Notes under the pieces: generated by a model
Databases searched by the model: none
What the model was told of the DNA's origin: nothing
The model's input: the letters and a program-made list of their open reading frames with translations, nothing else
Program-made: the position numbers and the translations under genes
Assembly (NCBI GenBank): GCA_964473825.1
Contig: CAYYQL010000030.1
Location: forward strand, 1 to 12,537
Origin: an uncultured archaeon
GTDB lineage: Archaea; Asgardarchaeota; Thorarchaeia; Thorarchaeales; Thorarchaeaceae
DNA: 12,537 bases
Direction: 5' to 3'
Part shown: piece after piece, positions 1 to 12,371 of the stretch
Layout of the letters: every line of letters begins with the position of its first letter
How positions within the stretch are numbered: the first letter of the stretch is position 1

Positions 1-72
1 GAGGCCCTAGAGATGGGTTATCGCATGGTAGACACTGCTTTTGCCCCTGATTGGTGCCGAGAGTCTACCTAG
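1..72 (+). CDS. Possible 3' end of a convergent gene entering from the left (EALEMGYRMVDTAFAPDWCREST*)
   Basis: Frame +1 is open from base 1 to TAG at 70-72. This stop overlaps the minus-strand TAG (69-71) of the acyl-CoA dehydrogenase in the palindrome CTAG. Only 23 codons are visible, so it could be chance. Confidence 0.3.
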   Translation, partial: EALEMGYRMVDTAFAPDWCREST

Positions 73-1268
73 AAGTCTGGCGGTTCCATGTTGACCCATT
101 TTGGTATGCTCTCCATAGCTGGGTCATATCCGTCGAGGACATGGCGTGCGAGAATCAGTCGTTGAATCTCGCTCGTGCCTTCGTAGATCTGGTAGAGCTT
201 TGCATCTCTAAAGATCTTCTCGAGAGGGTACTGATCAATATATCCGTATCCTCCGTGGATTTGAAGCGCCTCACTTGCAATCCACATTGCGGCATCCGTA
301 GCAAAGGCCTTTGCCACACTGGCAGGGACTGTTGAATCGCCCGAGGTATCGGCCTCCCACGCAGATCTGAGGTAGAGCAATCGCGACGCCTCTATCTTCA
401 TATACATCTCTGCAAGCTTGAACTGGATTGCCTCAAACTCTCGCAGCTTCTTGGTGAAGGCCTCTCGTTTGTTCACATATTCTCTGGCATATTCCATGGC
501 AGCTCTTGCCAGACCTGTGGCGAAGGCGCCAATTGCAGGTCTCGTCATAGCGAAAGTCGACATAGCAATCAGGAAGCCCATCCCTTCTCCGCCCAAGATG
601 TTCTCTTCAGGGACTTCGACATCTCTCAGAACGACAGACGAAGTTGAAGACGCTCTATGCCCCATCTTTTCAACAGGCCGGCCAGTCCTCAGACCCGAAC
701 TGTCCGCTTCAACAATGAATGCACACAGTGCCTTATGTCTCTGACTGGGATCTAAGCTCGCAAACACCGTAAAGTAGTCAGCATAGGGCGCATTCGTAAT
801 CCAGAACTTGCTTCCATTCAGGACATAGTGGTCACCCTTCTTTTCTGCTCGTGTCTTGATACCTGCGACATCACTCCCCATTCCTGGTTCTGAGCAAGCA
901 AAAGATATGAATCTCAAATCCTCCGTCAAGGGCCGTAGGTACTTCTCCTTCTGTTCCTCATTTCCAGCCACAAGAATCGGCTCTGCACCAAGACTGTTGA
1001 CGTAGATGCTCGTGGTCATCCCTGCACATCCCGCAGCCATCTCCTCCACAACAATGCACTGTTCCAATGCCCCCAGTCCCGGGCCACCATAGTCCTCAGG
1101 TATTCCGAGATTCATGAGTCCCTCATCCCAGCACTTCTGTATGATGGGCCGTGGGAACTCACCAGTCTTGTCGTAGTAATGTGCATAGGGAAGCATATAC
1201 TCTTGGGCAAACCGCCTAGCACGGTTTCGTAGCTCGACCTGTTCATCGGTTAGGGAAAAATCGATCAT
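69..1268 (-). CDS. Acyl-CoA dehydrogenase, short/medium-chain (MCAD/SCAD-type), ~399 aa
   Basis: Motifs [43 protein letters not shown] and [17 protein letters not shown] (catalytic Glu in YEGT). Start placed at ATG 1268 ([10 protein letters not shown], typical family N-terminus) with GAGGA upstream; the ORF track extends it to 1313. Confidence 0.95.
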   Translation of the reverse strand: [399 protein letters not shown]

Positions 1269-1378
1269 CTTCTCGTCCTCTTGCATAATAGAATGGTATC
1301 CAACTCGTAGCATGCTATATGTCAGTTTTGACTCAGCAGTATACTACGATACTCTACACTCTATCGATATTTGGTCTG

Positions 1379-3649
1379 TTAAATGATGCCAGCCTTGATC
1401 TGCTTAACAACCTCGGGCAGGTTCCATTTCAGTTCAAGTTCCAACGCACCATCTTCGGGTCCAGGACATCTACGTACACATGTTCGACAGGCGACACAGA
1501 GCCAGAGATCAACCTCCACGGTACCAAATCCCGGTTTGTCTTCATCCAGCACAATCTTCTGTGTAGGCTTATCCTTTGCCAGTCCACGGATTGTCCGGTA
1601 GAATATCCCTCGGTTGACCGGGAGACTATCGATTGCCTCATCAGAGAAATCGAAGAAGGCAGGGGCATCTATGATCGGCCTGAGCGTGATTGCGTCTTCC
1701 GGGCAGGCAATCTCGCATGACTTGCAGCCAAGACACTTTGATTGCTCCCATCTTACCGTTCCAAATCCTAGAAGGGGCGCATACCCCATCTGTGACTTGT
1801 ATTCCTCCAAGACGGAGGGAACATCCACATCCAGCAGATCTTCGATAGTGACCTTAGGTCGAGTATTCGGTATCTTGGCACGTGTTCGATATGTCATAAC
1901 GACCGCGGACTTCACCTTGTCCTCGACGGTATCAAGAAGACTCCCCGCGATCACCGTTCCACCGATGTCTATCTTCTCCATCTTATCCCGTGCCTTGGAA
2001 AAGGTCTCAAGCGAGTTAGCAAGATTTCCAATATCTTCAGGCTTCAAGTCTTCAAGTATGGATTCAATCTCATTCTTTGCACTGACCAGTAGCTTTGCTT
2101 CTTCACATGCCGTTCGCACCACAATCTCTGCCTTTGTGGGCGTTCTTGGGACATCATAGAGAACATATCCGTGTTCCTCCCCGGCAAGGGTAAGGAGCTC
2201 GTCACGTTTCATTCTGAGAAGATGCTGAAAGACTCTATCTTGAGGAATACTGGTTCTCTCGGCTAAGTCTTTGGCACTCATGGCACCAAGTTCACGTATC
2301 AAGATGAGGATTGTCCCTCTCTCAAGCTCATTACTGAGATAGCTGTCCATGATTTGTTTGTATCTCTCCGGATCTAGCTTCTCCCCATAGACATTGGCAC
2401 CTTCTACGAGATTGGGCCCCTTCTCTAAGGCAATCTTCAATCTGAATCGAGCAAATGCTTCAAGACCTGCAGAAACAAGCAGTCTAAGGTCTTCAGCCCC
2501 AGTGTCATCAGTTCTCGTCAGAATGCCCTGTGTAGCGCCGTCAGCAATTCCTCTTGCCTTGCTGAGCAATTCTGCAAGATCTGTTTCATCGTACAGCCCA
2601 AGCTTCTGCAGTCTTTCGAGTCCCAGTTCGAGTTCTTCAAGAGAAGAAACGACCAGTTCCTTATTCTTCCCCTCCAAAGAGCGCGAAATACCACGTAGCT
2701 GCTGAACGATTCTCTTCAACACCATCGTGCCTTCTGGAATGGTTTCGAAGACTCGAGCAAAGACGGGTGCATTCTCATCAAGACCCACCATCTCCACGTC
2801 ACTTCGCTGAATCATGCTTACAATGCTTCTCTGAATGACGTCTGCCTCTATACCAATCAACTCTGCGAGTTCTGGCACAGTCTTTGAACCCATATGGGTC
2901 AGTATGAAGTATATGACTCCTCGATACAGCTCAATCATGACATTCTGACGAAGAAGGTAGTCAAACCTCTCCTGGTCTATTCTTTCCTCTCGTTTTGCTC
3001 TCTTCACCTGTGCTGCAGTCCTGAGGAAGTTTCCATATCGCGTCTTGGTGCCAAGTTTCTGTAGTCGGGCCAGAGTTTCATCAGGCTCCTTTTCCACAAG
3101 ATTTCTGGCATCCTGGATTCCCTGCCGTAACTCTTTCAAATCCCGTTCTGCAGTCTTTGCATCTTCATCCGCGCTCTCCTCATACCCCCTGATCACTTCG
3201 GTTATGTGATTGGTTAGTTCGGGCAAAGGCGCGAGAATATCTCTCAGTTCAACTTCTTCTGTTTCTTCTTCCTTCCTTGACTTCTTAGTAAGTGAGTCAA
3301 GTCTAATTCTCAGAAGGCCCAAGAGGCCCTTCAGGGATTCAATGTTTCCCTTTTCGACTGCCTCTTCGAGATTATCAATTGCTCCTGCCAGAAGCCCTCT
3401 ATCGGAAACGTTTTCGATGAGGCTTGCCTTTTCAACGGCTGTTCGGAACTCACCAAAGTACTTCTCTGGAAAAGCAAGTATCTCCTCTGTCAGGGGACTT
3501 ATCTGTTCCTTTAGAAGTTCGAGTTCTTCATTGACTCGGCTTAGAGGTATAGCTGACTCTTCTTTCAGACCTCCAAGGACCATAATCATATCCATCATTC
3601 GTCTTCGCTTGGGTGCCATCTCACGCTCTGCTGCAATCGGTTCAGTCAT
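1379..3649 (-). CDS. Uncharacterised ~756-aa protein: helical N-terminus, two winged-helix-like repeats, C-terminal 2x[4Fe-4S] ferredoxin
   Basis: CxxCxxCxxxCP motifs CLGCKSCEIACP and CVACRTCVRRCP. wHTH-like segments GSKTVPELAELIGIEADVIQRSIVSM and GAMSAKDLAERTSIPQDRVFQHLLRM. Start set at ATG 3649, which overlaps the upstream stop (ATGA) with GGAGG 8 nt upstream; the ORF track starts at 3667. Confidence 0.85.
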   Translation of the reverse strand: MTEPIAAEREMAPKRRRMMDMIMVLGGLKEESAIPLSRVNEELELLKEQISPLTEEILAFPEKYFGEFRTAVEKASLIENVSDRGLLAGAIDNLEEAVEKGNIESLKGLLGLLRIRLDSLTKKSRKEEETEEVELRDILAPLPELTNHITEVIRGYEESADEDAKTAERDLKELRQGIQDARNLVEKEPDETLARLQKLGTKTRYGNFLRTAAQVKRAKREERIDQERFDYLLRQNVMIELYRGVIYFILTHMGSKTVPELAELIGIEADVIQRSIVSMIQRSDVEMVGLDENAPVFARVFETIPEGTMVLKRIVQQLRGISRSLEGKNKELVVSSLEELELGLERLQKLGLYDETDLAELLSKARGIADGATQGILTRTDDTGAEDLRLLVSAGLEAFARFRLKIALEKGPNLVEGANVYGEKLDPERYKQIMDSYLSNELERGTILILIRELGAMSAKDLAERTSIPQDRVFQHLLRMKRDELLTLAGEEHGYVLYDVPRTPTKAEIVVRTACEEAKLLVSAKNEIESILEDLKPEDIGNLANSLETFSKARDKMEKIDIGGTVIAGSLLDTVEDKVKSAVVMTYRTRAKIPNTRPKVTIEDLLDVDVPSVLEEYKSQMGYAPLLGFGTVRWEQSKCLGCKSCEIACPEDAITLRPIIDAPAFFDFSDEAIDSLPVNRGIFYRTIRGLAKDKPTQKIVLDEDKPGFGTVEVDLWLCVACRTCVRRCPGPEDGALELELKWNLPEVVKQIKAGII

Positions 3650-5808
3650 TTGCTCGCCTCCATCCATTTTCCAGCAGTCCCCTCATGCACCGGAGTTGGC
3701 CCAAGCTCTTCTGCTCGTCTTACCATTTCATCTATGGCCTCTATGAAACGCTCAGGTTCAGCACTGTACATTCTGAACATATCAACTCGTTCGCCTTTCC
3801 AGCCAATTGCATTCAGGATATCCCGGGCGACATCAATCTGGACCTGAGCAATTTCGTTTCCTGTTCCTCCCATATGGCATCGGTCAGTTTCGCAAGATGC
3901 AATCATCACTGTGCTTGCTCCGTGTTCGAATCCCTTGAGTATATCGATGATGCTTACTCTTCCTGCACATGGAACGGGAATAAATCGCGTATTCGCTGGA
4001 TACTTCATCTTTCGCGTCCCAACAATATCTATGGTTGACACGGCACACTCTTCACAATGGAAACAAAGCGTGATTGGATTGTCTGCTCCGGCTCCCTCTA
4101 GAGAGGCCTCAATCTGAGCCCAGAGCTGCTCATTAGTCAAGAAGTTGAGTTGGGTTGCTGCTGAGGGACAAAGGCTCTGGCAGACACCACAGGCATGGCA
4201 GTTGAGTGTGTCAATGGACGCCTTGAATTCCAACTTCTCATTTTCGTCCTCTGGATTCTCGGTTTCCTCAATCATCAAAGGCACGCCACGAGGACACTGC
4301 TGTGCACACAATGAACATCCCACACAGTCTTCCACATTCAGAACCGCGCCCCGAGCTAGCTTCGTGATTCTTCCCCTTTGAAGTTCATTATGCATCACGA
4401 GGGCGCCTGCTTGCGCATCTGTCACTGCTTCGAAGACAAACTGGGGTCTGGTGGCTCCACCGACAGCAATAACTCCTCTTCTTCGCGTTTCTAACCTCCG
4501 CAGCTTGCCATACAACTCCTTGACATGGCCACCCTCTTCGATATCAAAGCCAAGGGTTTCTGAGAGTTCATTTAGACCTTCAGAGGGAAGTACGGCAGAT
4601 GAGAGGACAAGAAGGTCAGGTGTGAGTTCTAGATACTTGTTGAGAAGAGAGTCATATACCTTAACATGGGTCTGCGTATCTTCTTCCCAGACCATGCTGA
4701 CTCTTCCCCTGATATAGTCCACCCCCTTTTCTCGAGACTCTTTGTAGATCATCTCATTCTCAAATGGAACCCGGATATCCATATAGACAACTCTGACTCG
4801 CACCTCGGAGTTCCTCTTGAGGACCTCGAGGGCGTTGTCTATAGCAAAGGTACAGCAGAGCTTGCTGCAATCGCGTTTATAGTCCTCTGCCCTACTGCCC
4901 ACGCATTGTACCATCACAATCTCCTTTACGGGTCCACCATCAGAGGGCCTGTTCAGCTCTCCTTCGCAGAGCATGCAGGATAGCTCGAACTGAGTCATAA
5001 CATCTGGATTCTTACCATACCTGTATTCATCCAACTCTGTTGGCTTGAACTCTCTGAAGCCAGTGGCCATCAGAATGCCGGAGGTCTGTATGTCCTTCTC
5101 AGCCCCATCCGTATCAACATAATGAATAGTGAAGTTTCCCATCTCTCCATCAAAGAACTTCACAGTAGCGTTTCGGTGGACATCGATATTGACATCTTTC
5201 TCGATAGATTCTAGTCTGCCACTGAGTACCTCTGCTCCTGACTTGCCTGTCGGGGCCACAACAGGTAGATGAATCACATGACCTCCCAATTCGGTTTCTC
5301 TCTCAAGAAGAGTGACCTCGTAGCCCAAATTGGATAGACTCAATGCAGACTCGATGCCCGCAATTCCTCCACCAATGACCGTTACATGACTTGCGACTTC
5401 CTTTGTTTCGTTCAAGACAGGCTCTGAGAGGTTCGCAAGTTTCACTGCACCCTTGATCATTGCCAACGATTTCTCTGTCGCCTCTTTGATATCATCGTGG
5501 ACCCATGCAGAGTGCTCTCGAATATTCACATATTGTATCTGTGATGAATCGATCCGCTCGTCTCTCAAGTAGTTGTCAATCCGTACCTTGATCTTCTGGC
5601 TGGTACAGGCTGCAATAACCAGACGCCCCTGACTTGCTGCAACGAGCTTCTTGATTTCCTCCAGCCCCTCATCCTGGCATAGGGTACCATGGATTGTGAC
5701 CGATTCCACCCCTTCATACTGTGAGAGCTCTTTGTCTAACAGGTCATAGTCAAGCGACAGGGTATCTCCACAAGTACATAGTAGCACAGGGGATTCATTT
5801 TCACTCAC
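3646..5808 (-). CDS. hdrA: Heterodisulfide reductase subunit A-like flavoprotein fused to a C-terminal MvhD/FlxD [2Fe-2S] domain (QmoB-like architecture), ~720 aa
   Basis: HdrA N-terminal domain (LCTCG..LCQDEG..AACT..NIREHSAWVH), FAD motif VIGGGIAG, HdrA signature QCVGSR..CSKLCC, C-terminal ferredoxin (CVGCSLCAQQCP, CHACGVCQSLCP), and MvhD motifs CEEC, YPANTRFIPVPCAGRV, SCETDRCH, ELGPTP. Start set at GTG 5808, 4 nt after the upstream stop, preceded by GGAAGTGA; the ORF-track start at 5901 overlaps the upstream gene. Confidence 0.9.
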   Translation of the reverse strand: MSENESPVLLCTCGDTLSLDYDLLDKELSQYEGVESVTIHGTLCQDEGLEEIKKLVAASQGRLVIAACTSQKIKVRIDNYLRDERIDSSQIQYVNIREHSAWVHDDIKEATEKSLAMIKGAVKLANLSEPVLNETKEVASHVTVIGGGIAGIESALSLSNLGYEVTLLERETELGGHVIHLPVVAPTGKSGAEVLSGRLESIEKDVNIDVHRNATVKFFDGEMGNFTIHYVDTDGAEKDIQTSGILMATGFREFKPTELDEYRYGKNPDVMTQFELSCMLCEGELNRPSDGGPVKEIVMVQCVGSRAEDYKRDCSKLCCTFAIDNALEVLKRNSEVRVRVVYMDIRVPFENEMIYKESREKGVDYIRGRVSMVWEEDTQTHVKVYDSLLNKYLELTPDLLVLSSAVLPSEGLNELSETLGFDIEEGGHVKELYGKLRRLETRRRGVIAVGGATRPQFVFEAVTDAQAGALVMHNELQRGRITKLARGAVLNVEDCVGCSLCAQQCPRGVPLMIEETENPEDENEKLEFKASIDTLNCHACGVCQSLCPSAATQLNFLTNEQLWAQIEASLEGAGADNPITLCFHCEECAVSTIDIVGTRKMKYPANTRFIPVPCAGRVSIIDILKGFEHGASTVMIASCETDRCHMGGTGNEIAQVQIDVARDILNAIGWKGERVDMFRMYSAEPERFIEAIDEMVRRAEELGPTPVHEGTAGKWMEASK

Positions 5809-5812
5809 ATGA

Positions 5813-7063
5813 TCACTTCCTGTTCTGCAGAATCTTCGACACAACAGCTCTCGCCTGGTTGACGCTCTCTGGAACTTCTGCTGGTCCCAGGGCTGTACCA
5901 CATGCGTAGACTCTCTCTCCTACTACGACCTCGTTCTCTGCAATCAAGTCTGCGGGTGCAACAAACCCGCTTGCGTCCTCTAGACCGAGTTGCTTCATCA
6001 GTTCCTTTCCCCCCTCAGGAGGTTCCAGTGCTGAGGAGAGCACAAATAGGTCCACATTTGTTTTCAGGTATCCATCCAGCAACGAATCATAGACAACAAC
6101 ATCGAGAGATTCATCTTCTCTGGGTTCTATGCGGGTGACCCGTCCCCGGATGAACTCGACTCCTCCATCACGTGCCTCGCGATAGTATCGTTCGTGTCTG
6201 TCATATGTCCGAATGTCCATGTAGACTACGCTTACCTTGACATTCTCTCTCTCCTGTGTGGCAATTACTGCATGTTTCAAAGCGAACACACAACATATCT
6301 TTGAGCAGTATGGATAATATCGCTCATCGCGGCTTCCGACACATTGAACCATCATCATTCGCCTGACAGGTTCTCCATCTGAGGGTCGTGTGATCACGCC
6401 GCCTGACTCTCCATTTGGATCGAGTATCTTCGCCAGCTCCAACTGGGTCACTATGTTTGGATGCGTTCCATAACCGTACTCCTCTACATCGGCAGGTATC
6501 ATCTCGTGGTAACCCGTAGCAATCACAATGTCTGAGACCTCTACGGTTTCCTCGGAGGGTTCAGCCGCGAGATTGATGGCGTCCGTGGGGCATTCCTCCT
6601 CCGCCTTCCTATCCCCCTCTTCGGCTTTGGAGGGGTTGTAGACGACAGCCTGTGGCTGACACTGAGGGGACAGCAGTTCGAATGCCCGCGAGTGTTCTAT
6701 GCATTTTCCACACAGAATGCATTTCTTTGGATTCACATACCGGGGGCCCACAAGGAGTGTGGCTTGAAACTCTCCCGCCGTACCTGATATATCCTTTACA
6801 GTTGTATCTGTGTACAAGTCGATATTCTGCTGGTCGGTCATAGCACTCCTGTAGAAGCACTTTCTTATTCCTGGTCGTGAGCGATTCCCCTCAAAACAGT
6901 AGAAACAATCGTCAGTTGGAAAGGCTTTGTAGAGATTGAGTGCATTTCCGCCGATTGTTCTCAACCTATCAACAAGGATGACCTTCACTCCTGAGTCAGC
7001 TAGTTCGACTGCTGCCGTCATGCCTGCAACGCCCGCGCCGATTACTAGAACTGGGCTTGTCAT
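5813..7063 (-). CDS. hdrA: Short heterodisulfide reductase subunit A-like flavoprotein (QmoA-like size), 416 aa
   Basis: VLVIGAGVAG FAD motif at the N-terminus, LYKAFPTDDCFYC (HdrA DKTFPTxDCxxC-like), EYGYG..NIVT, RPSDG, QCVGSRD..YCSKICC, YMDIRT, GVEFIRGRV. RBS GAGGTGA upstream of the ATG. Confidence 0.9.
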   Translation of the reverse strand: MTSPVLVIGAGVAGMTAAVELADSGVKVILVDRLRTIGGNALNLYKAFPTDDCFYCFEGNRSRPGIRKCFYRSAMTDQQNIDLYTDTTVKDISGTAGEFQATLLVGPRYVNPKKCILCGKCIEHSRAFELLSPQCQPQAVVYNPSKAEEGDRKAEEECPTDAINLAAEPSEETVEVSDIVIATGYHEMIPADVEEYGYGTHPNIVTQLELAKILDPNGESGGVITRPSDGEPVRRMMMVQCVGSRDERYYPYCSKICCVFALKHAVIATQERENVKVSVVYMDIRTYDRHERYYREARDGGVEFIRGRVTRIEPREDESLDVVVYDSLLDGYLKTNVDLFVLSSALEPPEGGKELMKQLGLEDASGFVAPADLIAENEVVVGERVYACGTALGPAEVPESVNQARAVVSKILQNRK

Positions 7064-7081
7064 TCCGGATTCACCTCAAAA

Positions 7082-7948
7082 TCACTCAGAGAGATGCTCA
7101 AGTATCCCGTGTGCTGGGACTCGATTCATGTTCAGTCCGACTTCGTCATCACTCATTCCCATGGCCAGTCCAAGAATCTGGGGGTATAGAAGGACAGGCA
7201 GATCATAGGCTTCACCGTACGACTCTCTCAATCCCAGCTGCTGGAGGTCAAGCTGGTTTCCACAGGCCGGACAGACCACCGTGAGAAACTCAGCTCCTGC
7301 TGTCTTCATGGATTTCAGCTTATCTCTTGCAAGTCTTATTGCCAACGGTTCATTCACGGGAAGCACCGTGGCGCCACAACACTGTTTCCAAAGGGGGTAT
7401 TCCGTCACCTTTGCACCTGTCACTCTGACGAGTTCCTTGAGGACTCTAGGCTTGAACTCAGTCACATCCTCTGGTCGTAGAAGATGACAGCCGTAATGAA
7501 TGGCAATCTCCGCCCCATCAAGGGGATTAGTGATCTTGGCTTTGATTGCATCGATTCCAATATCTGTGTAGAGCGCCTCTACAAAGTGACGAACCTTGAT
7601 GTTCCCCTTCAATTCCAGATTATACTGTTTGAGTTCCTCATTGATCTTCTTCATGTCATCTTGACTGTGCTTCAGATGATGAAGGACATCTTTTAGGGAT
7701 CCGAAACATCCGTTGCAGGGGGTGACAATGTCGTGGCCATTCTTCTCGGCAATTGCAAGGGTACGAGCATTAACCACAAGCCAGCCGAAGTAGTCGAATG
7801 CACGAAGGTTTGGGCTACCACAGCAAGCAACGCCCTCCATGTATTCTAGTTCCATATCAAAGGCTTCTGCGACTTTGAGCATAGATGCTTCATAGTTTGG
7901 ATAGTTGGCTGGGACGCTGCAACCCATATAGAGATTATATGTTGGCAC
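7082..7948 (-). CDS. hdrB: Heterodisulfide reductase subunit B (two CCG domains), 288 aa
   Basis: YMGC..CCGS..TPCNGC and HYGCHLLRP..CCGA..VCPAC..QLD. Start set at GTG 7948, 1 nt after the hdrC stop, with RBS GGAGGAG; the ORF-track extension to 8095 overlaps hdrC. Confidence 0.95.
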   Translation of the reverse strand: MPTYNLYMGCSVPANYPNYEASMLKVAEAFDMELEYMEGVACCGSPNLRAFDYFGWLVVNARTLAIAEKNGHDIVTPCNGCFGSLKDVLHHLKHSQDDMKKINEELKQYNLELKGNIKVRHFVEALYTDIGIDAIKAKITNPLDGAEIAIHYGCHLLRPEDVTEFKPRVLKELVRVTGAKVTEYPLWKQCCGATVLPVNEPLAIRLARDKLKSMKTAGAEFLTVVCPACGNQLDLQQLGLRESYGEAYDLPVLLYPQILGLAMGMSDDEVGLNMNRVPAHGILEHLSE

Positions 7949-7949
7949 T

Positions 7950-8489
7950 TTACTCTCCTCCCACAAGCTGGCCGGTCCGTGTCTTCTTGAGAATGCTCTC
8001 CACATCTTCAACAGCCAGCCCCGGCACTTCGGGTTCCAAATCAAGGTCTTCTCGTTCCCAGTCAGCGGTGACAACATAGAGCTGACCCTTGTCAATCAGT
8101 TCCTTTCCTAGAGCCAGCACATTCTCTGGAATCTTTCCTTGTTCTGCAGCTAGATTCTTGCAGTCAAAGAGAATGTCCGTTACCCGGACCTTTTGGGGAC
8201 ATCTCTCTTGGCATTCGAAGCAAGTGAGACACTCCCAGATTTCTCTGGATGAAAGAACCTCTTCACGCATACCAAGCAGTATCATCCTGACTAATTGATG
8301 TGGCTTGAAATCCCATTGATTTGCAATGGGACACGCTGCTGTACAGGTCGAGCATGCAAAACAAGCAGTGAGTTCTTCACCGTTTGGCATGCTCTTCACT
8401 TGATCACGGAAACTGGGATCCAATTTCGACATGTCAATAGGATCGACCAGTGTAACCGGGGGATTCACCTTCTCATCAGTTTCTGCCAT
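7950..8489 (-). CDS. hdrC: Heterodisulfide reductase subunit C, 2x[4Fe-4S], 179 aa
   Basis: CFACSTCTAACP and IWECLTCFECQERCP separated by PHQLVRMILLG; directly upstream of hdrB. Confidence 0.95.
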   Translation of the reverse strand: MAETDEKVNPPVTLVDPIDMSKLDPSFRDQVKSMPNGEELTACFACSTCTAACPIANQWDFKPHQLVRMILLGMREEVLSSREIWECLTCFECQERCPQKVRVTDILFDCKNLAAEQGKIPENVLALGKELIDKGQLYVVTADWEREDLDLEPEVPGLAVEDVESILKKTRTGQLVGGE

Positions 8490-8555
8490 TTGCTAACACC
8501 ACTATGAAGTGCCTTCCCTTGTGATACGGACGTGACTCGGAGCTTCTGTCCCACA

Positions 8556-8570
8556 TATTAAAAGCTTACA
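8556..8570 (-). promoter_or_regulatory. Putative archaeal promoter (TATA box TTTTAATA with weak upstream BRE-like GTAAGC) for the hdr operon
   Basis: Minus strand reads TGTAAGC-TTTTAATA about 67 nt upstream of the hdrC ATG, within a 128-nt intergenic gap; GGTG RBS-like sequence lies before the ATG. Confidence 0.5.
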
Positions 8571-8578
8571 GAATGGCG

Positions 8579-8584
8579 AAAAAA
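8579..8584 (-). terminator. Possible oligo-T terminator ending the replication-cluster transcript
   Basis: T6 tract (GGTTTTTTCG on minus) about 35 nt after the stop of the small membrane gene and just upstream of the putative hdr TATA box. Confidence 0.35.
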
Positions 8585-8617
8585 CCAAGGATAAAGTTTC
8601 AGGGACTGAGATATGCA

Positions 8618-8809
8618 TCATTGACCGGGTAGTCCCTTCTTGTAGATGAGGAGGGCAATCCCAGTAGTCAAGAATATGACGACTGTTTCATATGCAAGAA
8701 TCGCCAACAAGCCCTGATCTGCAAGGGGATAGAATGCTGCCCCAGATAGGGCTAGACCGATACAGCTAATCCATCCGAGTATGATAATCCAATCTCTCTT
8801 GGGCGACAT
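8618..8809 (-). CDS. Small hypothetical membrane protein with two predicted TM helices, ~63 aa
   Basis: Hydrophobic stretches WIIILGWISCIGLALSGAAFY and LLAILAYETVVIFLTTGIALLIY, flanked by basic residues (KR, KK). ATG 8809 preferred over GTG 8821. Confidence 0.65.
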   Translation of the reverse strand: MSPKRDWIIILGWISCIGLALSGAAFYPLADQGLLAILAYETVVIFLTTGIALLIYKKGLPGQ

Positions 8810-8832
8810 AGTCGAACACACGTCTAGGGTTC

Positions 8833-9123
8833 TTATTGGTTTTGTGTTGTGTTTCGTATAGATGAGACTCTTCGTTCAAGCTCCCTGTAGTTGGCAAGAG
8901 ATTCTTCTCTTAGTTGTAGATGCTTTCGGATAAGATATCCATTCAGCTCTTCTTTACTCCCATGCATACGTTCGATTGTTTCCAGCCTATCAGTCGTTAT
9001 CAAACGTAGCGATCCGCTAAGGGCCACCTGAAACTCGTCATGCAGTTTCTCAACACGCTCCTGCATTTCTCGCAGCGTCTTGAGAATCTCTTCAATCTCT
9101 GCCCGAATAGTCTCATCTTTCAT
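8833..9123 (-). CDS. Hypothetical alpha-helical/coiled-coil protein, 96 aa
   Basis: ATG overlaps the gins15 stop (ATGA at 9123-9120); heptad-like pattern IEEILKTLREMQERVEKLHDEF. Confidence 0.75.
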   Translation of the reverse strand: MKDETIRAEIEEILKTLREMQERVEKLHDEFQVALSGSLRLITTDRLETIERMHGSKEELNGYLIRKHLQLREESLANYRELERRVSSIRNTTQNQ

Positions 9124-9746
9124 TTCTGGTCACGAGTTCCAATCTTCTGAGCTGCGATTCTTGTCACGGTACCATCTCTCAACCATATTTTTGCATTATC
9201 AATCGGGATGCGTGTTACCTCTTCGGCCTCAAATGGACCATACACCTGTTCATCCATACCAACGAACTGAGTCTTGACAGGCTGCAGGAATCGTACAAGA
9301 ACGTAGTCAACATCTCCCTCAACATCCTCGGCAGTGAGGTCTTCATCAACTTCTTGCTCTCTTGTGGCTAGACCGGACCCCCCTCTCAACATCTCTTCCA
9401 CAAACTCATCATGGCCCTCAAATCCTCTAGTGAGCCGATTATAGAGTCTCTCTTCGGAAACAGTCATGATTCCTAGGGGTTTTCTCCCCTCGGTTGCTGC
9501 CTTCAGAATCTTTTCTCTTCGCACCCGAAGAAGGTCCTTCAACATGAACTCGGCATTGAGAATCTCTCTTGTCAGTAGGTCTGCCTGAAGCTCACTCTCT
9601 GCGGGAGTTTCAGTGAGTTTCATTCGAATAGACGACAGGTATTCTCCCAGTTCTGCGAGGCGCAAGTCCTGTAAGTCTTGCAGGCTATCTTCCTGCACCT
9701 CTGCATCCCATGCTTTCTGGAGGTCTGCATAGATAGCCCTATTCAA
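9120..9746 (-). CDS. gins15: GINS complex subunit, Gins15/Gins51 type (A domain, acidic linker, B domain), 208 aa
   Basis: Helical A domain (W..E....LQDL; RREKILKAA; MTVSEERLY) and B domain YVLVRFL..FVGMDEQVYGPFEAEEVTRIPIDNAKIWL..G. Lies directly after priS as in the conserved archaeal pcn-priS-gins15 cluster; TTG start overlaps the priS stop by 8 nt. Confidence 0.9.
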   Translation of the reverse strand: MNRAIYADLQKAWDAEVQEDSLQDLQDLRLAELGEYLSSIRMKLTETPAESELQADLLTREILNAEFMLKDLLRVRREKILKAATEGRKPLGIMTVSEERLYNRLTRGFEGHDEFVEEMLRGGSGLATREQEVDEDLTAEDVEGDVDYVLVRFLQPVKTQFVGMDEQVYGPFEAEEVTRIPIDNAKIWLRDGTVTRIAAQKIGTRDQK

Positions 9747-11118
9747 TCACAGCAACTCCCTTGCACATCAAGAACACTGCAGCAGCAATCGGCAATGAAA
9801 CTACCCCATTTTCAAGGGGTCCGTAACTATCTTCACTAATTCGAAATTCGGGGATTCCCAAGTCGCCACCCTTAACATTTATTCTCAGATCATTACCCCT
9901 GATTGCCACGGCATCGGAGAACGGGTCGAAACTTTCCATATCATCGCGTGTTAACTCTTTAACTGCGAAACCCGTCTTTCCGCTCAGACTTCCGATGAGT
10001 CTTATGACTCTATGAATATCATGGGTAACCGGCACATCTATCTCTCCACCGTATTCATCTGCAGCCAGGGTTGCTATCTCCTGCCATGACTTAAGACCTA
10101 CTCCTTTTACCCTCGCGCTGAGGATAGGCACATCAAGAAGCAGCCCTTGGAGTGCCTCATCCTTGTACTTCTGAAGCGGAGAAACCCACCTGTACTTCCC
10201 CTCGAAACCATCAATGTTCCTGATGAATTCCACCATTGCACCAGCAACCTTGCCCCCCCACCCCGGCACTTCGCGTCCCGTGATTGACTCGGACGATCCT
10301 CTTAATGTCACCACTCTCTTCCCTTGGAAACCGAATCCTGATATATAGTGAACTATCTCGACTCGGGCATTTGAGTCCAGAGGGAATACTTTCTGGTCTT
10401 TCACCCGTATGTGATACCCTCGATGCCCACTGTAGTTCAACTGGATATCGGCAGGATCTACATCAAAATCATTTACAAGAAACTCATCATAGACCTTTAG
10501 GGTATTCTTCTTTGCATCTTCCAGACACCTATCACAGACCCACTTCCTGGCAATGAAAGAAGTACCTTCACACTGCGGACAAATGTCCGGCGCTGTTCCT
10601 CTTCCTCTCTCTCTGCATTCTGCATTGGTGCACATCCATGAGTCATGGTCTTCTGTGCAGGAAGAGTCCAGATGGTCCGCATCTATGTCAAATACCAGCT
10701 CTGCCCCCATCCATTCCTTGTCTTCCATTCGTGCAGTTGGCACCCTGTAGAAAGCAGCAGAATGATAGATGCTATGTGGTGCATTCTTCACGAGCCCCTC
10801 AATCAGACTGTTACCTGATCGAAATGCTACGTGTCGCGTCCAGTTATTTGTGCTGAGGCCTTCAGTGCCACAGTTCGGACAGATCGATAGTCTTCCATAC
10901 GAACGTCCCGACCTACCACAACCAATGAGTTTCACTTTCCCCTGTTCATCCTCATCATGTCTCTTTCTGCAGACCCAATTGTAGTGCCAGCTCTGTAGAC
11001 CAAACTCTCGAGTGTGTACTCTGTCAGGAATATCGACCTGTCCCGAATGGCTTCGATAGTAGTCTCTAAACGCAAGCTGCAAGAATCTCCTTGTTGCTTC
11101 TCGAGGCTTTTTTGACAA
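9739..11118 (-). CDS. priS: DNA primase catalytic (small) subunit with Zn-ribbon insertions and a GINS-B-like C-terminal domain
   Basis: AEP motifs REFG..RH, YHSAAFY, W.GAELVFDIDADHL, YSGHRGYHI, IDVPVTHDIHRVIRLIGSLSGKTG. Start set at TTG 11118 (AGGAG 10 nt upstream); GTG 11145 is an alternative. Confidence 0.95.
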   Translation of the reverse strand: MSKKPREATRRFLQLAFRDYYRSHSGQVDIPDRVHTREFGLQSWHYNWVCRKRHDEDEQGKVKLIGCGRSGRSYGRLSICPNCGTEGLSTNNWTRHVAFRSGNSLIEGLVKNAPHSIYHSAAFYRVPTARMEDKEWMGAELVFDIDADHLDSSCTEDHDSWMCTNAECRERGRGTAPDICPQCEGTSFIARKWVCDRCLEDAKKNTLKVYDEFLVNDFDVDPADIQLNYSGHRGYHIRVKDQKVFPLDSNARVEIVHYISGFGFQGKRVVTLRGSSESITGREVPGWGGKVAGAMVEFIRNIDGFEGKYRWVSPLQKYKDEALQGLLLDVPILSARVKGVGLKSWQEIATLAADEYGGEIDVPVTHDIHRVIRLIGSLSGKTGFAVKELTRDDMESFDPFSDAVAIRGNDLRINVKGGDLGIPEFRISEDSYGPLENGVVSLPIAAAVFLMCKGVAVIE

Positions 11119-11211
11119 AGGAATCAGACTCCTGAACTGGCCCACTTGGGACTATCTGGCCTGCTGGTTTCTATTGGCAAGAGATTTGACACCTGCCAAC
11201 AACCGCTGCGA

Positions 11212-11961
11212 TTATCTTCTCTCAATCCGGGGTGCCAACACAAAGCTGATACTACCCGCCTCAGCAATTCCAAAGTCCATTCTCATCGGTTTGTCATTGC
11301 TGAACTGGATTATCACCGTGTCCGCAGCAACTGCTTTGACAATCTCTGAGAGGTAATTCAGGGCATACATGGCCGTAGTCTTTTCCTTGCTCTCCAAGTC
11401 ATAAATCACAGAGTCTTCTCCCGTTGTTAGCTGAACCTCTGCTTCTCCGGTGTCACCCTCTCCCGCAAAGATTACTGACTTCTTATCTGCTGTAACTTTG
11501 ATATGGTTGGATATCACACCGATGTCTTTTACAGCCTGCTTGAGGGCATCGGAATTCATCTCCAGTTTGGCCATGAATTTCAGATCAGGCCTCTTGGCTT
11601 GGTTATCCGGGGGAGTAAGCATCTGCAGTCTGAACACTCGCTCTGCCTGACCTATCATCTTTATCTCGAATCTCTTGTCATCACCGACATCGAATTCAAG
11701 TCTATCATCTGCGGCCATTCTTCTACTGATCTTGGCCAGTTCGTCCACACCAAGACAAATCTGCATCTCTTCATCACAGGTAAACTCCTGAAAAACACCT
11801 GCAGGAAGAGTCAGATCAATCATGGCCACCTTGGATGAATCTAGCTGTGTCAGAGTGATTCCTGTTTTGTTGACCACGAAGTTAACCTCGGTGAGCAGGG
11901 TTGCCAGCGCATCCACAATTTGCTTCCAAGTTTTGCTACTATCTAGCGTTGCATGAAACAT
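11212..11961 (-). CDS. pcn: DNA polymerase sliding clamp PCNA, 249 aa
   Basis: Typical length and motifs: GITLTQLDSSKVAMIDL, VFQEFTCD, MYALNYL, FSNDKPMRMDF, C-terminal FVLAPRIE. RBS GGAGG upstream. Confidence 0.97.
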   Translation of the reverse strand: MFHATLDSSKTWKQIVDALATLLTEVNFVVNKTGITLTQLDSSKVAMIDLTLPAGVFQEFTCDEEMQICLGVDELAKISRRMAADDRLEFDVGDDKRFEIKMIGQAERVFRLQMLTPPDNQAKRPDLKFMAKLEMNSDALKQAVKDIGVISNHIKVTADKKSVIFAGEGDTGEAEVQLTTGEDSVIYDLESKEKTTAMYALNYLSEIVKAVAADTVIIQFSNDKPMRMDFGIAEAGSISFVLAPRIERR

Positions 11962-11975
11962 CTAGCCGCCTCCAA

Positions 11976-12371
11976 TTATCTCCGGAGATAGTCTAGTACC
12001 TTCTTCTCTAGGTCAAGTGTCTGCTTAAACTCTTTTATGTCAAGCTCGTCCACGTTGTGAGCAATACTTGCTACCAATTGCTTCTCCTTTCCTTTCGAAG
12101 TGGTCTTCTCTGCGACTTCTCCAATCAGCATATACTTCTGAGCAACCTCTAGGGTGCCTTCAACAGTGACAGGAATGGTGACAGCGTGGCCCACCTCATC
12201 CATGATGTCTTGTACAAGTGCTGCACCAGTTCTCGCCTCTACTACGATACCAAGTATCCTCACTAGTCCCTTTGTCTCCGGGCTGAGTTCTCGCACTGTT
12301 GTGAGTCTAGCTGGTTTTCGCGGTGGAAAGCTCTTCTTCTCCTCAGTCACTGGTTTCACTTCGGCTGCCAT
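11976..12371 (-). CDS. Single OB-fold protein resembling archaeal RPA3/RPA14 (replication protein A small subunit), 131 aa
   Basis: RKPA...VREL, VRILGIVVE, LVQD, YMLIGEV and a C-terminal helix VDELDIKEFKQTLDLEKKVL. This matches my recollection of Thermococcales RPA14 (RKPA..ISEI; VSLIG; D..ALEEIRELERKLL). Directly upstream of pcn. Confidence 0.65.
   Translation of the reverse strand: MAAEVKPVTEEKKSFPPRKPARLTTVRELSPETKGLVRILGIVVEARTGAALVQDIMDEVGHAVTIPVTVEGTLEVAQKYMLIGEVAEKTTSKGKEKQLVASIAHNVDELDIKEFKQTLDLEKKVLDYLRR

Follow-up and report, generated by a model that had tools for sequence, protein, structure and literature searches.

Anaerobic energy conservation depends centrally on flavin-based bifurcating complexes of the heterodisulfide reductase (Hdr) type. 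To our knowledge, Asgard archaea lack the methanogenic heterodisulfide, and the donors, acceptors and subunit composition of their Hdr complexes are not known. What role, then, is played by a protein that joins winged-helix (WH) folds to a ferredoxin and is encoded in overlap with hdrA-mvhD in an Asgard hdr operon? The gene lies on the minus strand, at positions 1379-3649 of a 12,537-nucleotide (nt) stretch of contig CAYYQL010000030.1 (assembly GCA_964473825.1), which belongs to an uncultured archaeon of the family Thorarchaeaceae. We refer to the whole stretch as the window and to this open reading frame (ORF) as X.

The original prediction, made from the sequence of the window, offered two readings of X, namely a redox-sensing transcription regulator wired to the Hdr electron path through its clusters, or a scaffold or electron carrier that uses its WH folds for protein docking. 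What had been observed in the sequence of X was confirmed throughout. We consider that X probably serves an Asgard HdrA/MvhD-HdrBC-type complex as a scaffold and electron-relay subunit, with WH folds that would dock proteins and not DNA. This second reading is well supported, because it is favored by the homology of a WH module of X to a module of Hdr-associated MvhD proteins, by natural variants with a GltD-like insertion, by a predicted interface with HdrA/MvhD, and by the acidic wings of the WH folds.

Domain architecture of X

The C-terminal part of X carries two intact CxxCxxCxxxCP motifs, CLGCKSCEIACP (nt 1700-1735) and CVACRTCVRRCP (nt 1463-1498), separated by a 67-amino-acid (aa) insert (nt 1499-1699). 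All eight motif cysteines are invariant in 32 homologues with identities down to 19%. The domain exceeds the Pfam cut-offs of Fer4_7 (37.4 against 27), Fer4_9 (34.5 against 27) and Fer4 (32.2 against 21.1), and by its motifs and these scores it is a bacterial-type 2x[4Fe-4S] ferredoxin domain, which would hold two clusters. It forms a single two-cluster unit and not the several tandem units of a polyferredoxin of the MvhB/FwdF type. Among solved structures, FwdF, FmdF and MvhB are closest to it in sequence (E 6e-14 to 5e-6), and NuoI was also matched.

Only Fer4 families passed the Pfam cut-offs on X, the matches to MarR_2, TrmB, HTH_9 and Med9 being sub-threshold. Pfam gave no FlpD (PF02662) match in X; this domain sits at the C-terminus of the preceding, overlapping gene. 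A search of the PDB with the X family profile found matches confined to the ferredoxin domain, and an Atlas search with residues 1-220 gave no usable match. Neither the Pfam nor the PDB sequence searches produced a full-length match to any described family, and we found no paper on the protein in the literature. The architecture is uncharacterised, in line with the earlier statement that no characterised Hdr subunit has this layout.

AlphaFold2 (AF2) models of X are mostly helical, as had been expected from the sequence. The full-length model has a mean predicted local distance difference test (pLDDT) score of 76.8 and a predicted template modelling (pTM) score of 0.41, while a model of residues 215-600 has values of 80.3 and 0.36. 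Next to long helices, the models contain two helix-helix-helix-hairpin units at aa 226-299 (WH1, nt 2753-2974) and aa 427-499 (WH2), and both superpose on solved winged-helix domains with Z of 10-12.8 and a root-mean-square deviation (rmsd) of 1-2 Å over 60-64 residues. The two winged-helix-turn-helix-like modules noticed at the outset are thus present as WH folds. The WH2 unit belongs to a second repeat (aa 419-592) that is paralogous to the first (BLASTP E 9e-9), and the linker between repeat 2 and the ferredoxin domain is poorly modelled.

A Foldseek search with the AF2 model, which had been suggested as a check, placed RPC62/RPC82 of RNA polymerase III at the top (E 6.4e-5, probability 0.99). 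These proteins resemble X as chains of WH domains with long helices between them, which in X, too, would serve protein-protein contacts. However, the template modelling (TM) scores were 0.08-0.16, the rmsd was above 30 Å, the identity was 9-14%, and HTH_9 scored 19.2 bits against a cut-off of 23.4. At a TM-score of about 0.1 we did not take the match as evidence of homology and kept RPC62/RPC82 as an architectural analogy.

A winged-helix module shared with long MvhD proteins

Outside the X family, phmmer matches to residues ~384-500 were short proteins (E 1e-7 to 1e-4), and nine of the ten that we scanned were MvhD (FlpD) proteins of 215-331 aa in which the match fell in a C-terminal extension. 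The alignment of X with these long MvhD extensions is near-gapless over about 117 residues and has a common FR[LV]R..GK..L..GNVYGEK stretch followed by the WH. A comparison of the repeat region of X with an MvhD-extension profile made without X sequences gave an hhalign probability of 99.3% (E 1.2e-20), and an independent, structure-based Atlas search returned FlpD proteins of 234-254 aa and 119-aa stand-alone modules. From these comparisons we conclude that residues 384-500 of X share ancestry with the C-terminal extension of long MvhD proteins. Repeat 1 matched the module profile A4, which includes X repeat-2 sequences, at E 1.4e-11; it has no GNVYGEK loop and is a weaker match to the module than repeat 2.

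Long MvhD proteins (210-330 aa) consist of FlpD, a helix, the GNVYGEK loop and a WH, and like X they are encoded inside hdrA-rich operons, where their genes are tightly packed among double-hdrA, mvhD, hdrBC-fusion, gltD-like and metF genes. They occur in Methanomassiliicoccales, Thermoplasmata, Bathyarchaeia, Archaeoglobi and Chloroflexi, as well as in Acidobacteriota, WOR-3, Syntrophobacterales and Thermodesulfobacteriota, and some of them are probably selenoproteins. Whereas the module is fused to MvhD in these proteins, in X it follows the MvhD domain across a 4-nt gene overlap. In effect, X starts where a long MvhD would go on, as a separate, translationally coupled chain after the MvhD domain. 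In contrast to long MvhD, X lacks a FlpD/[2Fe-2S] domain. It contains the module twice, extended in both copies by helical hairpins, and adds a 220-aa N-terminal helical region and the 2x[4Fe-4S] ferredoxin domain.

A precedent for the use of such an extension comes from the cryo-electron microscopy of class II benzoyl-CoA reductase, where BamF is described as an MvhD homologue that exceeds known MvhDs by more than 100 residues and whose winged helix-turn-helix motif interfaces with BamI (preprint 10.64898/2026.04.10.717634). The electron route in that enzyme leads from BamI through the C-terminal ferredoxin domain of the HdrA-like BamE to the [2Fe-2S] cluster of BamF (10.64898/2026.04.10.717634). 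Going by the description in the preprint, BamF would be a long MvhD, and we infer that its WH is the same module as residues 384-500 of X.

The module has no Pfam model. A long MvhD query against the PDB matched MvhD chains of 129-141 aa, none with the extension, and we found no paper on the long-MvhD module as such. A search for the module at "longer" lengths returned mostly the X family, with a 1219-aa variant of X as the sole addition. A strict GNVYGEK pattern search of genome contigs gave 16 loci and none from Geobacter, and a protein search seeded with a Thermodesulfobacteriota long MvhD found close relatives alone and no BamF. Because of its fold, the module is mislabelled by automatic annotation as an ArsR or MarR regulator. 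These searches identify a widespread, unannotated WH module in archaea and bacteria, which seems to serve as a docking element in Hdr supercomplexes generally.

Several further observations concern the module itself. Two long MvhD genes of Syntrophobacterales and Thermodesulfobacteriota (L020:4557-5318 and L023:4545-5303) have an in-frame TGA in G-U-HPGECHY that likely encodes selenocysteine, and many database entries of ~167 aa appear to be long MvhD genes truncated at that TGA. Both loci lie in hdrA clusters and not in bam clusters. Another module architecture is seen in proteins of 276-291 aa from Archaeoglobi and uncultured archaea (L022:4455-5309, L024:4455-5282 and L026:4404-5276), which combine an N-terminal pair of ferredoxin motifs with a C-terminal GNVYGEK WH module. 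Module-only ORFs of 115-137 aa occur in the window's own family (for example G146:C17:41391-41696, G272:C15:127843-128151 and G093:C80:2015-2320), and the 119-aa module cluster of the Atlas (TM 0.87) is commonest in Thorarchaeota. Promethearchaeota proteins of 824 aa with FrhB_FdhB_N and Pyr_redox domains gave a weak Atlas match (TM 0.27) to the WH/helical repeat region, and on the strength of this structural match they may represent a further case of an Asgard redox protein built on a scaffold of this kind.

Variants of X with a built-in oxidoreductase

Two Thorarchaeota proteins show what the X chain can accommodate. P0215 (972 aa, L008:8001-10919) occupies the X slot, with a 4-nt overlap with hdrA-mvhD and the acyl-CoA dehydrogenase gene (acd) downstream. 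It retains X residues 9-119 (44% identity) and 419-753 (61% identity), while a Fer4_20+Pyr_redox_2 (GltD/NfnB-like) module replaces residues ~120-418. In P0247 (1219 aa), X residues 9-207 and 211-753 are kept, the latter with 64% identity, and the same Fer4_20+Pyr_redox_2 module is inserted at the 207/211 loop. Both variants occupy the operon slot of X and retain its N-terminal region, and the family of the window has a form of ~975 aa in about six of its 76 sampled genomes. A chain into which an iron-sulfur flavoprotein that oxidises NAD(P)H can be inserted behaves like a component of an electron-transfer assembly and not like a transcription factor. These natural variants point to NAD(P)H as a testable donor.

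The N-terminal region has a feature of its own. Its peptide APKRRRMMDMI, which lies within aa 1-30 (window 3560-3649), has K14 and R15 invariant in alignment A1. Although the models give it low confidence, the peptide persists in both insertion variants and even in the distant clade, and it might serve as a short motif for docking.

Predicted complex with HdrA-MvhD

We predicted the complex between X residues 384-756 and HdrA-MvhD residues 515-751. The score was 0.88 (runs 0.90, 0.88 and 0.88), and the best of three controls scored 0.00; the mark that was passed is reached by 58 of 80 solved complexes and by 2 of 110 mismatched pairs. Contact agreement between the runs was at least 88%, and the pLDDT of the partners was at least 59. 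X contributes its two Cys motifs and the ferredoxin insert to the confident interface, with L676, P677, A691, G707 and P729 among the invariant residues there. HdrA-MvhD contributes the two Cys motifs of its C-terminal ferredoxin domain, its C-terminal tail and two segments of MvhD that contain invariant residues. As a model, the prediction shows likeness and supports the binding of X to HdrA/MvhD, short of a demonstration.

The BamI–BamE–BamF route fits this predicted seat of X on the C-terminal ferredoxin of HdrA and on MvhD. With relay subunits of the ferredoxin type on HdrA/MvhD, such as MvhG, FdhB, MvhB/FmdF/FwdF and BamI, X shares a 2x[4Fe-4S] domain. Unlike them, it has a single two-cluster domain whose 67-aa insert forms much of the predicted interface, this domain is joined to ~620 residues of helical/WH scaffold, and there is no fused catalytic partner except in the GltD-insertion variants.

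Operon conservation and distribution of X

All genes of the window are on the minus strand, and X overlaps the stop codon of hdrA-mvhD in an ATGA, as had been noticed from the sequence (Table 1). A GGAGG lies 9-13 nt upstream of the X start. An alternative in-frame ATG at 3667 would add six codons to X, while the starts of homologues are called at the overlap instead. The short hdrA, hdrB and hdrC genes (5813..8489) make up the rest of the conserved operon.

Three other Thor-type loci, labelled Lokiarchaeota (L002), Sifarchaeia (L003) and Thorarchaeota (L005), have the order pcna-priS-gins-...-hdrC-hdrB-hdrA(416 aa)-hdrA/mvhD-X-acd, and the same 4-nt overlap of hdrA-mvhD and X as in the window is present in these three and in L008. 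Relatives with 19-27% identity in Lokiarchaeota and Helarchaeota (L006 and L007) have the order hdrA(~435 aa)-hdrA/mvhD-X-hdrC-hdrB, with gaps of 2 and 11 nt between hdrA-mvhD and X, and no acyl-CoA dehydrogenase gene was found beside X in these two loci. In each locus that we read, X comes immediately after hdrA-mvhD and stands beside hdrBC. Since this order is kept in the Lokiarchaeota and Helarchaeota loci, the tie of X to hdrA-mvhD and hdrBC outlasts divergence to ~20% identity, whereas the tie to acd does not, because acd is not next to X there.

A word-indexed search returned more than 240 near-full-length relatives of X with about 58-61% identity. Their named sources were Thorarchaeota, with a few labelled Sifarchaeia, Hodarchaeota, Lokiarchaeota or Promethearchaeota, and the annotation was in all cases just "4Fe-4S dicluster domain-containing protein". 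When 1.84 billion cluster representatives were searched exhaustively, one main cluster was recovered along with about nine full-length clusters at 19-27% identity, the latter from Helarchaeota or Lokiarchaeota where the source was named. Among 301 sampled genomes of the phylum, X was present in all 76 of the window's own family and was patchy elsewhere. Based on these genomes and on the distribution in the searches, X is a core gene of its family and is confined to Asgard archaea in the collections searched. It is a universal, highly conserved candidate for an extra subunit in one large Asgard family, with divergent copies in Helarchaeota and Lokiarchaeota.

These surveys also covered the findings that the original prediction had named as grounds for giving it up. 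No full-length match to a known family appeared, the predicted structures contain WH folds, and the homologues are associated with hdr genes in each locus read.

Proposed function and alternative explanations

In the model that we prefer, X would be a non-catalytic adaptor arm of an Asgard HdrA/MvhD-HdrBC-type flavin/iron-sulfur complex. Its ferredoxin domain, with two [4Fe-4S] clusters, would plug into the junction of the HdrA C-terminal ferredoxin and the fused MvhD, and would lengthen the electron wire that leads via the [2Fe-2S] cluster of MvhD to the flavin of HdrA. The two WH-plus-helix repeats, presumably derived from the long-MvhD extension module, would form together with the N-terminal helical region a protein-docking scaffold that places the redox partner. 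The variants of some Thorarchaeota have a GltD/NfnB-like, NAD(P)H-oxidising flavoprotein built into this scaffold. The form in the window would receive a separate partner, for which free ferredoxin, or the neighbouring acyl-CoA dehydrogenase with electron-transferring flavoprotein (ETF), are candidates. The analysis establishes the anatomy, conservation and synteny of X, the homology of its module and the occurrence of the variants, whereas binding to Hdr, the filling of the clusters, the course of the electrons and docking by the WH folds are deductions.

Some of our results weigh against this model. The score of the predicted complex rests on self-built, shallow alignments. Ferredoxin-type subunits bound to HdrA/MvhD have already been solved in Mvh-Hdr and Fdh-Hdr-Fmd, and the docking pass may therefore reflect, at least in part, a likeness to those structures and not the binding of this copy. 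The WH module is outside the confident interface, so the docking role of the WH folds rests on homology and on one preprint, and BamF was likened to X by its description in the preprint. In addition, the WH cores of X have DNA-binding regulators as their best structural matches, the MarR_2 score of 26.1 bits is just under the cut-off of 27, and recognition helix 2 (QDRVFQHLLRMKR) has a net charge of +3 in the main clade, with a mean of +0.7 in the distant clade.

The last three points are those on which a redox-sensing transcription regulator could be based, in which the [4Fe-4S] clusters would report the redox state of Hdr and the WH folds would bind DNA at hdr or other genes. The cores superpose best on DNA-binding domains of the MarR, ArsR, IclR and TrmB types and share their three-helix and beta-hairpin fold; TrmB, too, scored just under its cut-off (22.3 against 25.6 bits); and the automatic name of X in JGI is "ferredoxin/MarR family regulator". 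However, the wings have net charges of -2 (WH1) and -3 (WH2) in X and are acidic in all clades (family means -1.7 and -2.2), recognition helix 1 carries no net charge, and the distant clade does not share the charge of helix 2. The protein as a whole is acidic, with an isoelectric point of 4.98 (4.7-6.3 in the main clade, while some distant members are basic). On the electrostatics of the recognition helices, which had been proposed as a test, the evidence is divided, helix 2 of the main clade speaking for DNA contacts and helix 1 and the wings against them; taken together, the computed charges of the wings and helices make classical wing and helix contacts with DNA less likely. X also differs from MarR, ArsR and TrmB regulators in that its Pfam scores are under the cut-offs (for PF0610-like_N, 17 against 33), it has no typical dimerisation architecture, and at 756 aa it is five times larger and is translationally coupled in the middle of an enzyme operon. 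Moreover, many phyla have this WH module fused to MvhD within their hdr operons, BamF offers a case of such a WH in contact with a protein, an NAD(P)H oxidoreductase is inserted into the chain in variants of X, and the ferredoxin domain is predicted to dock on HdrA/MvhD. With just a generic WH fold and a sub-threshold MarR_2 match in its favor, a regulatory role is very unlikely.

A more specific form of the adaptor model is that X bridges beta-oxidation and Hdr by docking acyl-CoA dehydrogenase or ETF, the acyl-CoA/enoyl-CoA pair being the high-potential couple of a bifurcating or confurcating Hdr. The acd gene is on the same strand, ~65-95 nt downstream of X, in the window and in four of four Thor-type loci, and EtfAB genes are present in the genome. 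In class II benzoyl-CoA reductase, the HdrBC-like subunit binds and reduces ETF, coupling it to butyryl-CoA dehydrogenase. This precedent, however, has ETF on the HdrBC-like subunit and not on an adaptor at the MvhD side; the homologues of Helarchaeota and Lokiarchaeota have no adjacent acyl-CoA dehydrogenase; and acd is retained even where the GltD-like module replaces repeat 1. Given EtfAB in the genome and the adjacent acyl-CoA dehydrogenase, a link to beta-oxidation is possible, though it is not conserved family-wide, and we regard this bridging role as rather unlikely. Another explanation is that X is no stable subunit and only has its operon in common with hdr, either as a large ferredoxin that acts on its own or as a chaperone or assembly factor. 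Gene neighbourhood alone is no proof of binding, and the low pTM of both models points to a flexible multidomain protein. The conserved stop/start overlap, the direct fusion of the module to MvhD elsewhere, and a high-scoring predicted interface that contains invariant residues make this explanation highly improbable.

If X is an adaptor subunit as we propose, it might define an Asgard-specific class of HdrA-based bifurcating or confurcating complexes in which a duplicated MvhD-extension WH arm recruits exchangeable donor or acceptor modules, a tentative idea that we hold with some doubt. If true, NAD(P)H would be taken up by way of a built-in GltD-like flavoprotein in some lineages, with ETF/acyl-CoA dehydrogenase or ferredoxin serving in others. 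The fermentation of fatty acids and amino acids would then be linked to low-potential ferredoxin in the archaea most closely related to eukaryotes.

Features of the window and neighbouring genes

Table 1. Coordinates of X, its parts and its operon in the window
Feature	Position (nt)	Strand	Basis
X, 756-aa Hdr-associated WH/ferredoxin protein	1379..3649	-	ORF and translation; stop codon 1379-1381
ATGA stop/start overlap of hdrA-mvhD and X	3646..3649	-	Sequence; X ATG 3649-3647, hdrA-mvhD TGA 3648-3646
N-terminal region of X, aa 1-121: conserved basic peptide, then helices	3287..3649	-	Alignment A1 and DSSP
Charged linker and long helices, aa 122-220	2990..3286	-	DSSP; loop aa 207-211 is the GltD-like insertion site in P0247
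Repeat 1, aa 221-418: long helix, WH1, helical bundle	2396..2989	-	Internal duplication, WH fold
MvhD-extension-type module, aa 384-500: FRLK..EK helix, GANVYGEK loop, WH2	2150..2500	-	phmmer, hhalign, Atlas
Helical hairpin after WH2, aa 501-592	1874..2149	-	DSSP, pLDDT 80-90
C-terminal 2x[4Fe-4S] ferredoxin domain, aa 629-756	1382..1765	-	Pfam Fer4 families, 8 invariant Cys
hdrA-mvhD fusion, predicted docking partner of X	3646..5901 (longest ORF)	-	Pfam Pyr_redox_2, Fer4_7, FlpD (MvhD)
Short hdrA paralogue	5813-7063	-	Pfam, synteny
hdrB, CCG domains	within 7082-8095	-	Pfam, synteny
hdrC	7950-8489	-	Pfam, synteny
Acyl-CoA dehydrogenase gene (acd), 65 nt downstream of X	69..1313	-	Pfam, synteny

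The longest ORF of hdrA-mvhD begins with a GTG at 5901 and would overlap the short hdrA gene by ~90 nt. Because the homologues have 719-722 aa, the real start is probably ~30 codons downstream, near ..VSENESP.. in the translation.

Farther upstream, beyond hdrC, Pfam identified genes for Gins51, PriS and PCNA, which mark the DNA as archaeal. The hdr operon is directly downstream of pcna-priS-gins51 and one or two small conserved ORFs in the window (8489-12371) and in L002, L003, L005 and L008. This juxtaposition of replication and redox genes is unusually stable across all Thor-type loci that we read.

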